Below are positions 4,988 to 16,843 of a stretch of 40,860 bases of DNA, piece after piece. Origin of the DNA: Parachlamydiales bacterium (lineage in GTDB: Bacteria; Chlamydiota; Chlamydiia; Chlamydiales; Parachlamydiaceae). Under the pieces are notes generated by a model. That model was given only the letters and a program-made list of their open reading frames with translations. It was not told the origin of the DNA and did not search any database. The stretch lies in NCBI GenBank assembly GCA_020051235.1, contig JAGVJG010000135.1, forward strand, positions 1 to 40,860, in the 5' to 3' direction. Each line of letters starts with the position of its first letter. The stretch's first letter is position 1. The position numbers and the translations under genes are program-made.

Positions 4988-5821
4988 ATGAAAGTTCAAT
5001 ATAGTCTATTTGCGGTTGTTAATGAGAAATATATAGATTTCAATGCAGGTCATGGAAAGGATGCGAACATCATTTCAGCTTTGGAGGCATTAAATCTAAC
5101 ATCAACAACTATTCAGAGTGCGGACAATTATTCCCTCGTAGCTAGGAAGCTGGTTCAAAAGTATGAAAGTAATAGAACCTGGAAAGAGAAAGTTGTAGAT
5201 TTCTTTAAACATTTGATTTGTATCACCACAGAATATGATTATGTTCAATCGCTTGAAAACTCCATCAGGAGAAATAAGCATGTAGAAGCTGTTCCTGTTG
5301 AAGAAAAAGCCCGCTCGTTATTAGTTGGAGCAAATCTCGCTCCTTCAACCGATGATGATGAAGCGGTCTATTTGGCTTATACTCATCAACCAAGTGAACA
5401 GTTATTATATCGTTTATCATCCCAGGGCAAAGATAAATACATTCCTGAGATCATAAACAATCGATTCCGTTATGATGTCGATGCAGCAAGAAAATTGCTT
5501 AACTTTATGAATCCAGGCAAAGCCCATACAAAGGCAGTAAAGGAAATTTTATCAGACAGATTTAGTTTTGAATATATGTATTGCTTGGCAAATGTCGAAC
5601 AGTCCGCTAGAGCTGAGTTGATAAACTTGTTTATTGATCAAGCAATTGCAGAAATAAAAATGTCAAGTCGGCCTAAGGATTCATTAACTAATACATTTTA
5701 TAAACTTAAAGAATTGGGCGCGACTAAAGACGGCCTTACTCTATTTGCTAAAGAAATCGAGATCGTAATTACTGATTACGATGCGAACCAACTCAAAACC
5801 TTTTTAGAGAAGTGGGTATGA
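4988..5821 (+). CDS. array gene 1: hypothetical protein, family 1 (N-terminal DFFKHLxCxTTEYD module)
   Basis: 277-aa ORF with an AGGTG RBS. The motif DFFKHLICITTEYD is encoded at 5198-5239. The C-terminus is helical and unassigned. Confidence 0.75.
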   Translation: MKVQYSLFAVVNEKYIDFNAGHGKDANIISALEALNLTSTTIQSADNYSLVARKLVQKYESNRTWKEKVVDFFKHLICITTEYDYVQSLENSIRRNKHVEAVPVEEKARSLLVGANLAPSTDDDEAVYLAYTHQPSEQLLYRLSSQGKDKYIPEIINNRFRYDVDAARKLLNFMNPGKAHTKAVKEILSDRFSFEYMYCLANVEQSARAELINLFIDQAIAEIKMSSRPKDSLTNTFYKLKELGATKDGLTLFAKEIEIVITDYDANQLKTFLEKWV

Positions 5822-7326
5822 CGCACTTATATCTGCATGCTACAGAAGGAAATATCACCCACTTAGTTTATAACAAGGTGCCCCTCAAAGGTGAGGGCCG
5901 CGCGCTTAAAACTTTGCAAACCCTTGCTAATGCCCGTATTTTAAATTACGACGATCTTAATCAAAAGCCGACTGCTTTAATGCAAAAGGCAGCAGAAGAT
6001 GTAAAAGGGTGGTATGAGGCGCGGCGTAGCTGCTTTTCGGTTATTCGTGACTTTTTTGCTCATTTATTTTGCATGACAACAGAATATGACAAGATCATTG
6101 ATTTAGTTGCTAAAATTAAAGCTTTCAATGCCTACACCATTCACGATTACGCAAATCGTGTTTTTGATCAGCTGATGGTTTGTCCGGCTTTTAATAGTTG
6201 TGATGAGAAAGTTGCAAAGTTAGACGATAGCATTAAAAAAGAAGTGGCTGAACGTCTATATGGTTTGGCGGTGATGGGAGGTAAATATAATATAGCTGAA
6301 AAGTTACTGAAATTTTGCGATCCCGATAAAGAAATCAATCTGATCAAAACTTATAGAAATTACAATGAGTTTGACCGAATTAATGCCCTTCTTCCTCGTT
6401 TAACTGTCGGTAAAGCAGAAGCTGAACAATGTCTTCTTGAAGAAATGGTGAGAAAAATTCATCAAAACCGCATTCCTTCTTACGAAGTGTTAGCAAATTA
6501 CGATGATAATCTCACAATAAAATACATAACTAAGAGAGTCGACGAACTAATTGCAAGGAAAGAATTCAAAGATCGTTTATTTGAGAATCCGATTTTTTAT
6601 TTGCGAAAAGAACTAGTTGCTAATCCTGAGTTTGTAAGACTTTTAGCTCGCTATAACGAAGCAAAACAGGTCGAAGAAAGAGTAATCAAAGAGAAAGAAG
6701 AGATAGCTCAAAATCGCGATTCGAAAGCTAAAGAAATTGTTAATTCATATGATTTTAATACGATTATTAATCTAATTGATGAATCCAATTTCATAGACAC
6801 TAAAGAATTGAAGGAAAGAGTCTGTTTTTTTGCCTTTAATAAAGCATTAACTGAAAAAGATCTTCACTCCGCTTATAGATTTTGGAAGATTAGTACAAGT
6901 TTACCATCGCTTCACTTGGAAGACGCGGTAATTGCTAATAATTTAGCTGTAATTCCGTTAGAAGATATAAGTAAGTTTATTGATAAAAGAAAGCTGAGTT
7001 GGCTTTTAGTCAAAGATAAATTGGCAAATGGTAAATACAATTACATTCTCCCGAAAGATTTGAATTTAATAGAAGTAAGAGATTATTTCGAGGCGCTTAT
7101 TTCCGATCCCTCGGTAAAGGGTTTGGACGATAAATCAAAGTCATTAGTTAAAACTCAATTAACAGCCTTTGTAGAAACTTTAAAAGCCTATAATGGACAA
7201 ATAGAGAAATATAGAGAGCTTTTCAAAAAAGATAAATACCATACGAGTATTCCTATGGATGTATGTAGCTATCTAAATAAAGAGCCAATTATCAATGTGT
7301 ACGAGGAATTTATACGCACTTTATGA
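5818..7326 (+). CDS. array gene 2: hypothetical protein, family 1
   Basis: ATGA overlap with gene 1 (ATG at 5818; the track start at 5812 is a GTG). The motif DFFAHLFCMTTEYD is at 6049-6090. The N-terminal ~95 aa are closely similar to gene 3. Confidence 0.75.
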   Translation: MTHLYLHATEGNITHLVYNKVPLKGEGRALKTLQTLANARILNYDDLNQKPTALMQKAAEDVKGWYEARRSCFSVIRDFFAHLFCMTTEYDKIIDLVAKIKAFNAYTIHDYANRVFDQLMVCPAFNSCDEKVAKLDDSIKKEVAERLYGLAVMGGKYNIAEKLLKFCDPDKEINLIKTYRNYNEFDRINALLPRLTVGKAEAEQCLLEEMVRKIHQNRIPSYEVLANYDDNLTIKYITKRVDELIARKEFKDRLFENPIFYLRKELVANPEFVRLLARYNEAKQVEERVIKEKEEIAQNRDSKAKEIVNSYDFNTIINLIDESNFIDTKELKERVCFFAFNKALTEKDLHSAYRFWKISTSLPSLHLEDAVIANNLAVIPLEDISKFIDKRKLSWLLVKDKLANGKYNYILPKDLNLIEVRDYFEALISDPSVKGLDDKSKSLVKTQLTAFVETLKAYNGQIEKYRELFKKDKYHTSIPMDVCSYLNKEPIINVYEEFIRTL

Positions 7327-15791: not shown

Positions 15792-15793
15792 TT

Positions 15794-16843
15794 ATGGTTT
15801 ACTCAGTTGACACAATATCTGGCGGCTATGCCTTTATAAATAATCATAGTCAAAATAAATCCAAAGTGGGCTTAGTGGGAGTTAAAGCTTTAGAGGCTTT
15901 ATCTAAAGCGGAGTTCATAAAATTTGATACTTCTAATATCCAAGAATTAAGCCAATATTTTCTTGCTCAATGTAAGCCCGGCTTTTTGGGGCGAATATTA
16001 GAAGCTATATTAAGATGTTTCGGTGTTCGTACTCACTATAAAGCGGCCGAAGAATTGGCATCTGAAGTTTCAAAGAAAACTTATGAACCAAATCATTTTA
16101 TTCACACATTTAATCAGAATTTTAAATTATTATCAGAAAACGCAGATATTGAAGTTCCATCGTTTGAACCTGTTAATAAACAAGTAATGGTACAGGCACT
16201 GGAATGGTATCAGAAAGCCTTTTTACAAGTTAATTTACCTAAATCTGAAGTTATCAATACATTGTTCGCTGAATTAACGCAAAAAGAGACTTCGAATAAT
16301 TTTGATTTGTTTAAAAAGCAGTTTTTATTTGTCAAAGAGCAGAATGATCCTGAATCGATAATTATACGTATGTTATGTGTAGTTGGATTCTCGGATGTTT
16401 TAACTCTGAGAGGCAATGACATTACTCATATTAAAGAAACGCTTGCTCTTCTAGATAAACCCATTTCTTCCTTTGAAGATTACATCATTCTTCGAGGCGC
16501 TCGATTACTGTTACAACTCAATCAAAATCCTATCCAATATCTGAAATCGATTGGATGCGTTAGTATTAAAACTTTGCTACTACAAGAAGTGGTTAAAAGA
16601 TTTACCGTTCGTGGAAGTACTTTCTTACAGACCGATCAAAATTTTAGATATGCGATGAATCTTGTTAAGGAAAATCGTGATTGTTGCTGCATTCATATTA
16701 TTGAGGATCTGATTCGTGAATACAAAGCGGCGGATATTCTTGTCTATAAAGAAACCTTCAATGAAATACTCAAAGACTACACAGATCAAGATACAAAAGC
16801 GATCAGAGAGGATCTAGCTAATTACAAGAGTATTTATTCTTAA
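15794..16843 (+). CDS. array gene 10: hypothetical protein, degenerate family 1
   Basis: 2-nt gap after gene 9. The N-terminus retains VKALEALSKAEFIKF (compare LEVLTHLNKASFVRF in gene 6). A degenerate junction motif ILEAILRCFGVRTHYK lies at 15995-16042. Confidence 0.7.
   Translation: MVYSVDTISGGYAFINNHSQNKSKVGLVGVKALEALSKAEFIKFDTSNIQELSQYFLAQCKPGFLGRILEAILRCFGVRTHYKAAEELASEVSKKTYEPNHFIHTFNQNFKLLSENADIEVPSFEPVNKQVMVQALEWYQKAFLQVNLPKSEVINTLFAELTQKETSNNFDLFKKQFLFVKEQNDPESIIIRMLCVVGFSDVLTLRGNDITHIKETLALLDKPISSFEDYIILRGARLLLQLNQNPIQYLKSIGCVSIKTLLLQEVVKRFTVRGSTFLQTDQNFRYAMNLVKENRDCCCIHIIEDLIREYKAADILVYKETFNEILKDYTDQDTKAIREDLANYKSIYS

Follow-up and report, generated by a model that had tools for sequence, protein, structure and literature searches.

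Two families of modular orphan proteins in a translationally coupled gene array of a Parachlamydiales bacterium, candidate substrates of type III secretion

A public contig of a Parachlamydiales bacterium (JAGVJG010000135.1), analyzed here over its complete length of 40,860 bp and referred to as the window, carries an array of ten consecutive plus-strand open reading frames (ORFs) at positions 4988–16843. The array encodes two lineage-restricted families of modular orphan proteins. Family A comprises ORF1–6 and probably ORF10, which share an N-terminal module of about 100 amino acids (the N-module), while family B comprises ORF7–9, which share a different N-terminus. The array grew as neighboring genes were duplicated in tandem and their C-termini then diverged, and genes are lost from it as clean units, the signature of birth-and-death evolution. 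It is best explained as one operon, possibly as two transcription units split at 9069–9165. Both N-terminal modules are previously undescribed, and the array otherwise fits among the lineage-specific families of putative effectors that have expanded in tandem in environmental chlamydiae. We give about an even chance to the proposal that its products are substrates of type III secretion (T3S), whose variable tails would bind host targets.

Recomputation of the ten ORFs and of all nine junctions matched the original prediction exactly, and the two genes proposed as borders of the array, a divergent methyltransferase and a convergent ubiE, were both found. Seven of the nine junctions are start/stop overlaps. 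Five of these are 4-nt ATGA overlaps (at 5818, 7323, 11926, 12681 and 13862), and the remaining two span 8 nt at 14871 and 20 nt at 10535. The other junctions are a 2-nt gap (15792–15793) and a 97-nt spacer (9069–9165). The ATG of ORF2 at 5818 agrees with the annotated start of its ortholog in L006, a 34-kb Logan contig of a related strain. The array and its borders are as follows.

3918–4844, minus strand: S-adenosylmethionine-dependent methyltransferase (OlsG/PmtA-like), divergent flank of the array
4988–5821, plus strand: ORF1, 277 aa, N-module protein
5818–7326, plus strand: ORF2, 502 aa, ATG start, N-module protein
7323–9068, plus strand: ORF3, 581 aa, N-module protein
9166–10554, plus strand: ORF4, 462 aa, N-module and predicted TPR-like alpha-solenoid, related to ORF5 over its full length
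10535–11929, plus strand: ORF5, 464 aa, N-module protein, paralog of ORF4
11926–12684, plus strand: ORF6, 252 aa, N-module protein
12681–13865, plus strand: ORF7, 394 aa, N-terminal single-pass anchor module and unrelated C-terminus
13862–14878, plus strand: ORF8, 338 aa, anchor module, then about three probable leucine-rich repeats
14871–15791, plus strand: ORF9, 306 aa, anchor module and unrelated C-terminus
15794–16843, plus strand: ORF10, 349 aa, probable divergent N-module protein
16840–17592, minus strand: ubiE, convergent flank, its stop and that of ORF10 overlapping by 4 nt

Constant N-termini and variable C-termini

The N-module was recognized in ORF1–6 by three methods that agree: all-against-all BLASTP (E 1e-5 to 2e-20, with the database size set at 1e8 residues), a profile hidden Markov model, and hhalign (probabilities of 75–99%). 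Its core, Y-E-x-x-R-x5-[IV]-x-D-F-F-[KA]-[HK]-L-x-C-x-T-T-E-Y-D, is visible in the DNA itself as a 41-nt repeat family with five copies, and the modules of ORF2 and ORF3 are 51% identical. Alignment thus upholds the existence of a shared module. Its proposed presence in seven of the ten products was borne out with certainty for six, with ORF10 as a probable, divergent seventh. ORF10 has no BLASTP match to its paralogs, and the six-member profile of the module gives it 8.9 bits. With a family profile of 13 members its score is 20.8 bits, where the scores of 2000 shuffled sequences peak at 11.9 bits, and hhalign aligns it colinearly from the N-terminus with a probability of 85% (E 6e-6). The L006 ortholog of ORF10 reaches only 13.6 bits.

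Modeled alone with AlphaFold2 (AF2) from a 14-sequence family alignment, the N-module is predicted to have an alpha/beta fold, in which a beta-hairpin, one helix and one strand precede a bundle of three helices, with a predicted local distance difference test (pLDDT) score of 74. A comparison of this model with PDB folds yielded no match (best E 4.5), and neither did a comparison of the N-module profile with PDB chain sequences. The statement that the module cannot be placed in any named family therefore stands for Pfam, NCBIfam, PDB sequences and PDB folds. Identity with an F-box, BTB or RING/U-box domain was considered and rejected, as none of the ten proteins has such a Pfam match at E≤0.1 and the model matches no such PDB fold.

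Three of the products were originally thought to share an N-terminal membrane anchor, and a group consisting of ORF7–9 is indeed supported by alignment and by a single hydrophobic segment in each protein. Their common N-terminus of 45 residues, which is distinct from the N-module, follows the consensus M-I-x-x-[IL]-...-T-[GA]-G-L-A-L-[VI]-G-Y-x-G-Y-R-x-V-...-D-[KQ]-C-[GC]-T. The hydrophobic segment is 19–20 residues long, uncharged and of moderate hydrophobicity (KD19 1.29–1.75); no second such segment occurs in ORF7–9. The anchor modules of ORF9 and ORF7 are 66% identical over 61 aa. Metagenomes of the Joint Genome Institute (JGI) contain one distant relative of the anchor module, encoded at 1739–2218 of a 2.2-kb contig (L011) and scoring 41.5 bits. 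Upstream of it, at 367–1686, lies a 439-aa orphan ORF with a non-significant score of 12.5 bits against the N-module profile.

Beyond the modules the C-termini diverge, as had been proposed: all-against-all comparison showed them to be unrelated to one another except for those of ORF4 and ORF5, which are 37% identical over 307 aa (BLASTP, E 9e-57). Searches of the ten products against Pfam, NCBIfam, PADLOC and PDB sequences returned nothing significant, and the first three confirm that no recognizable enzyme or housekeeping motif is present; the sole near-match is LRR_8 in ORF8. The original description of the C-termini as helical and repeat-like holds for ORF4, the only one modeled, while ORF8 instead carries probable leucine-rich repeats (LRRs).

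The AF2 model of ORF4, built from an alignment of six paralogs, has a mean pLDDT of 68. Residues 110–310 reach a pLDDT of about 90 and form an all-helical solenoid of stacked helical hairpins. Foldseek found no PDB match to the model at E≤1e-3. The top weak matches, which include LbcA, LapB and BamD, are uniformly solenoids of tetratricopeptide (TPR) or pentatricopeptide (PPR) repeats (E 0.015–0.3, TM-scores ≤0.25). ORF4 thus resembles known TPR/PPR solenoids by its model, but the Pfam TPR_19 match stays under threshold (E 0.003, 18 bits) and the Foldseek E-values are all at least 0.015. From the model, the C-terminal part of ORF4 is confidently predicted to be an alpha-solenoid, probably TPR-like. 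ORF8, in turn, fits the consensus of LRR scaffolds (LxxLxLxxNxL) at residues 78–135, where about three repeats are visible, with an LRR_8 score of 24.9 bits (E 1.7e-5) that lies under the Pfam gathering score of 27. Its ortholog in L006 has a weak LRR_8 match as well.

Gene turnover and selection in a close relative

The contig of the related strain preserves the neighborhood of the array, in the order aroA-aroC-aroB, a ParE-type toxin-antitoxin pair, the methyltransferase, the array, ubiE, a nagA-like gene and a RING gene. Its array consists of nine genes rather than ten, in agreement with the expectation that copy number would differ among close relatives. ORF4 is absent as an exact one-gene unit: the spacer that follows ORF3 has its ortholog in L006 as far as the start codon, after which the sequence leads straight into ORF5. 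All nine shared ORFs are intact in L006, with lengths within 2 codons of those in the window and with conserved overlaps. The comparisons of individual ORFs with their L006 orthologs, given as amino-acid identity and as the ratio of nonsynonymous to synonymous divergence (dN/dS), include the following.

ORF1: 86.6% identity, dN/dS 0.25
ORF2 (ortholog P0004): 88.4% identity, dN/dS 0.23
ORF3: 84.8% identity, dN/dS 0.22
ORF5: 74% identity, dN/dS 0.23, dS 0.69
ORF6: 82.1% identity, dN/dS 0.13, dS 0.84
ORF7: 86% identity, anchor 98% identical
ORF9: 89.2% identity, dN/dS 0.23
ORF10: 88% identity, dN/dS 0.19

Across the array, dN/dS ranges from 0.13 to 0.27 at amino-acid identities of 74–89%, whereas the flanking genes (aro, methyltransferase, ubiE, nagA-like) show dN/dS of 0.02–0.12 at identities of 92–98%. 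Because the ORFs are intact and their dN/dS values exceed those of the flanks to this degree, the array consists of real, fast-evolving protein-coding genes, under a purifying selection about three times more relaxed than that on their neighbors. The N-terminal parts tend to be the best conserved, with 98% identity in the ORF7 anchor versus 85% in the rest of the protein and 86% versus 71% in ORF5.

This comparison bears directly on the suggestion that the array is decaying or non-functional lineage-specific DNA, whether duplicated junk or the remnant of a mobile element, that merely happens still to be open. All ten products are orphans, the GC content of the array lies below that of its flanks (35.0% versus 39.6%), and the Shine-Dalgarno sequences of its ORFs are poor, as such DNA might have it. 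Against this, nine of nine shared ORFs have stayed intact, at unchanged overlaps and nearly unchanged lengths, over a synonymous divergence (dS) of 0.25–0.84 and with the dN/dS values given above. Nor is there a transposase, an integrase (Pfam, NCBIfam) or another sign of a mobile element in the window, and no tRNA or Rfam element occurs anywhere in it. The flanks are chromosomal housekeeping genes, namely an aroA-aroK fusion, aroC, aroB, ubiE and the gene for RNase Y. The dN/dS comparison with L006 largely refutes the reading as non-functional DNA, which we regard as barely credible. In the window the aroA-aroK fusion (29–1309) is cut by the contig start, leaving 426 aa as opposed to 533 aa in L006.

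Nearest paralogs adjoin each other in the array (ORF2/ORF3 and ORF4/ORF5) and also in a distant contig, L009 (P0008 and a 730-aa protein). Since ORF4 and ORF5 are 37% identical whereas orthologs of the two strains are 74–89% identical, the duplication that produced the pair predates the split of the strains, and the simplest reading is that ORF4 was lost in the L006 lineage. ORF5 and ORF6 stand out by their dS of 0.69 and 0.84, compared with 0.25–0.39 in the rest of the array and in the flanks, which suggests that the tract they form (10535–12684), adjoining the ORF4 breakpoint, is an imported or recombined segment.

The toxin-antitoxin pair of L006 (4628–5120) consists of a gene for a 64-aa ParE toxin and one for a 117-aa partner, located between aroB and the methyltransferase. 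At 3343–3917 the window keeps a partner-like ORF only (3437–3730, 97 aa; blastn match at 3498–3732, 82.6% identity), and the ParE gene has no aligning counterpart in the window. The difference suggests that a toxin-antitoxin module beside the array is degrading or variably present.

The candidate regulatory regions of the array, together with a candidate terminator, are the following.

4845–4987: divergent intergenic region between the methyltransferase and ORF1, 143 nt, 94% identical to L006
9069–9165, plus strand: sole sizeable spacer of the array, candidate internal promoter
16859–16891, plus strand: hairpin with a T-rich tail, 13-bp GC-rich stem (6 GC), 16 nt past the ORF10 stop

The first of these is likely the main promoter region of the array. 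In the spacer, 80 of the 86 shared positions are the same in L006, a conservation above that of synonymous sites. The identities of the two intergenic regions, 94% and about 93%, compare with 88–89% for coding DNA and would fit promoters in both. An extended −10-like site, TGGTAAAAT, occurs at 4956–4964, a motif whose count across the window is at chance level, and TGTTAAAAT occurs at 9151–9159, 6 nt upstream of the ORF4 ATG. The frequency of TGNTAAAAT in the window is no better than chance, and a scan of the window for consensus promoters gave 41 matches, fewer than in shuffled sequence (50.7). With consensus scans at or below chance, the promoter assignments are drawn from intergenic conservation alone. 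The methyltransferase/ORF1 region further contains a 27-nt direct repeat (4844–4870 and 4909–4935; 85% identical, 65 nt apart), which may be a pair of regulator-binding sites. The hairpin at 16859–16891 was the top terminator-like site in the scan and lies within the last codons of ubiE, inside its 3' end; it may be an array terminator located inside a coding sequence.

Host, distribution and genomic contexts

That the host is related to Chlamydia, as originally proposed, and is a Parachlamydiales-like member of the Chlamydiota is supported by several observations. A 268-aa product encoded at 30492–31298 (plus strand) matches the Pom outer membrane protein family of Protochlamydia (PF17251, E 1e-16), and the best matches of ubiE are found in Waddliaceae/Parachlamydiaceae metagenome-assembled genomes (MAGs) at 43–49% identity. 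The same MAGs match RNase Y at 59% and a 664-aa neighbor at about 62%, and one member of the N-module family is labeled Parachlamydiaceae. No array homologs or aro genes lie beside ubiE in those MAGs. As the MAGs found are only distant and lack array homologs at this position, synteny across families is not usable.

Two further genes of the window may be mentioned here. A 176-aa ORF at 18702–19232 (plus strand), three genes from the array and conserved in L006, encodes an N-terminal RING finger (zf-RING_2 at 27.2 bits, with the gathering score at 27.3; zf-rbx1 at 26.9 bits) and is, on its sequence, a candidate eukaryote-like effector of the E3-ligase type. A 543-aa protein encoded at 37936–39567 (plus strand) combines PDZ_4 (E 8e-27) with Peptidase_S41 (E 1e-25), two domains that are also paired in CPAF, a chlamydial protease.

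The distribution of the N-module was determined by an exhaustive HMMER search of 1.84 billion representative proteins, on which the claims made here rest. Of 14 matches, six belong to the locus itself or to close orthologs, another is a spurious repeat protein, and the other seven are distant relatives (P0007–P0009 and P0011–P0014), all annotated as hypothetical or unnamed and with Parachlamydiaceae as the only taxon label. These relatives resemble the array in the N-module only. A scan of the contigs of 185,579 species representatives with the N-module found no relative. Word-indexed searches, made with the N-module alignment, with the ten proteins concatenated and with the 14-sequence family alignment, returned nothing or almost nothing. 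These negatives carry little weight because only P0013 was returned although P0007–P0014 were in the query. The N-module family is lineage-restricted and extremely rare, with about 13 clusters among 1.84e9 representatives. Neither homology to a housekeeping family nor widespread single-copy homologs in free-living bacteria, either of which would have contradicted the original prediction, were found in Pfam, NCBIfam and HMMER searches.

Five independent genomic contexts of the family could be compared, those of the window, L008, L009, L010 and L012. In L008, P0014 lies 70 nt downstream of, and on the same strand as, the gene string sctJ-x-sctL-sctR-sctS-sctT (x being an unknown gene), whose sct genes are bona fide injectisome genes by NCBIfam. 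In L010, P0009 lies two genes from a T3S chaperone of the CesT family (E 4e-31), and another RING ORF, at 6486–6881, is located near the family member. Two of the five contexts are therefore adjacent to components of a type III secretion system (T3SS). By rough reasoning, perhaps 2–3% of chlamydial genes lie near a T3SS gene, so that the proportion observed is above chance, though no proof.

In L012 a member sits between the genes for acetate kinase and fpg. L009, which comes from the same sample as L007 and may belong to the relative's genome, carries at 6966–9707 two adjacent members (173 and 730 aa) whose N-parts are 47% identical. They are inserted in a menaquinone (men) operon, with menE, menC, menA and menB on one side and menH, menD and menF on the other. 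A quinone/chorismate neighborhood is found at both this locus and that of the window, where the array abuts ubiE/menG and aro genes. The shared setting could be a coincidence or reflect a common ancestral insertion site.

Candidate effectors and rival readings

The evidence for T3S effectors is circumstantial. It consists of the two T3SS-adjacent contexts, the probable LRRs of ORF8, the solenoid of ORF4 and the relaxed purifying selection. The low GC of the array and the precedent of the NEX and PEX families discussed below point the same way, as does N-terminal composition: in the first 25 residues of family A, the fraction of S, T, N, Q, P, I and H averages 0.49, as opposed to 0.35 in the other genes of the window. 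Under the mechanism proposed, the constant N-terminal part would give every member a secretion signal and would also serve for chaperone binding, translocation or membrane targeting. The tails, variable and of solenoid or LRR type, would let the members bind different host proteins, and translational coupling would co-express the set.

A number of observations weigh against secretion. Three of the five contexts (window, L009 and L012) have no T3SS neighbor, and the window contains neither a T3SS gene nor a chaperone gene. The composition test is a crude one, the confidence of the N-module model is only moderate at the pLDDT reported above, and the C-terminus of a single protein, ORF4, was modeled. 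The anchors of ORF7–9 carry more positive charge on their C-terminal side; if they are inserted in the bacterial inner membrane, the positive-inside rule would place the variable domains on its cytoplasmic side, within the bacterium. Tight translational coupling, finally, is also typical of the subunits of bacterial complexes.

Several of these points are shared by the main rival, in which the products, three of them anchored and seven soluble N-module proteins, stay in the bacterium as co-expressed parts or adaptors of a membrane-associated assembly, such as an envelope, division or developmental-cycle scaffold built of TPR and LRR domains, with the N-module as a common docking domain. Coupling at seven of nine junctions, kept in L006, is what multi-subunit operons display, and TPR-like solenoids are common in bacterial housekeeping scaffolds, LbcA, LapB and BamD being among the weak Foldseek matches of ORF4. 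The predicted topology of the anchors, the purifying selection and the lack of a T3SS gene in the window would suit such an assembly equally. A core complex, however, is not expected to lose a subunit between close strains, as happened with ORF4, nor to evolve about three times faster than the neighboring genes. Restriction to some 13 clusters in the representatives searched, and occurrence singly or in pairs in other chlamydial genomes, would be unexpected as well. We consider a bacterial assembly doubtful, though a serious contender.

The original prediction had likened the array to type III effectors and polymorphic toxins alike. Its account of paralogs with constant N-termini and variable C-termini, in a chlamydial host, belonging to no named family and changing in copy number, has stood, while the polymorphic-toxin half has not. 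A polymorphic toxin, immunity or defense cassette would combine a constant trafficking domain and variable toxin C-termini with interleaved immunity proteins, and the architecture, the tandem genes and the GC content below that of the flanks all agree with it. However, Pfam, NCBIfam and PADLOC revealed no toxin, nuclease, peptidase, deaminase or immunity family in the products, and no alternation or pairing of large toxin with small immunity genes is seen. The trafficking domains of Rhs, CDI, T6SS or T7SS systems are absent, and the C-terminus of ORF4 is modeled as a solenoid rather than as an enzyme fold. An obligate intracellular life, moreover, would leave little room for interbacterial competition. 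A single PADLOC match, to GajB (E 1e-3, 15.7 bits), is noise, and a defense reading based on it was rejected. A toxin or defense cassette is thus highly improbable.

The effector reading has a close precedent in NEX1, NEX2, PEX1 and PEX2 of Neochlamydia and Protochlamydia, which form tandem arrays of genes with conserved N-domains and repeat C-termini (Domman et al. 2014, PMC4209131). These families have experimentally functional T3S signals, evolve under purifying selection and differ in copy number between close strains (PMC4209131). Like them, the array consists of tandem paralogs of an environmental chlamydia with a constant N-domain and repeat-type C-termini, LRRs and others, and undergoes birth and death under overall purifying selection, its copy number varying between close strains. 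The proposed role, that of a T3S effector pool, is also the same, although here it is putative. The array differs from NEX/PEX in that its N-domain is not an F-box, BTB or RING/U-box domain, in that a single translationally coupled operon holds both module families, interleaved, and in scale, with seven copies here and about 13 clusters worldwide as against tens to more than 100 NEX/PEX copies.

Inc proteins offer a second comparison. They are chlamydia-specific orphans, often clustered, that are T3S substrates and carry a bilobed hydrophobic domain of approximately 40–60 residues. ORF7–9 are likewise chlamydial orphans in which a hydrophobic segment near the N-terminus precedes a variable tail. 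An Inc-type anchor was nevertheless rejected, since each has one uncharged segment of 19–20 residues and not the roughly 40–60 residues of two transmembrane segments.

A similar logic is found in Salmonella. The N-domain of the WEK(I/M)xxFF effectors, about 100–140 aa long, is needed for delivery or targeting, and unrelated C-termini, LRRs included, follow it, as they do the N-module. The core of the N-module, [WF]xx[IV]xDFF, superficially resembles the Salmonella motif. In regular-expression searches the strict motif occurs in no member, and the relaxed form W..[IVM]..FF in ORF4 only, so that kinship was rejected. Neither SifA nor another Salmonella effector was recovered by the N-module profile among PDB chain sequences, Pfam showed no family of Salmonella effectors, and the module matches no PDB fold. 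The N-terminal WEK(I/M)xxFF translocation domain is shared by effectors of Salmonella pathogenicity island 2, among them SifA, SseJ, SspH2 and SopD2 (motif listed in PMC3896991). The likeness is an analogy of logic only.

A more far-reaching version of the effector reading, which we judge unlikely, is that the N-module is an undescribed, chlamydia-specific delivery domain that defines an effector superfamily. The module would then serve as a dedicated chaperone-binding, translocation or host-membrane-targeting device, and ten effectors, seven of them soluble and three with a single-pass anchor, would be delivered together from the operon, the moderate hydrophobicity of the anchors being tuned for T3S export. 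If this were true, the N-module would offer a handle with which to find more effectors and to fuse reporters; if it is not a delivery domain, the array is another lineage-specific orphan family.

The result will not surprise the specialist, but it is useful for chlamydial effector biology. Environmental chlamydiae serve as models of the way in which obligate intracellular bacteria come by new proteins for the manipulation of their hosts, and most of their effectors are orphan sequences that cannot be recognized by homology. The locus yields two compact sequence modules whose profiles can point to candidate effectors in the genomes and MAGs of chlamydiae. Birth and death are caught in progress here as well, through the presence or absence of a single gene between strains and through neighboring duplicates at varied stages of divergence.

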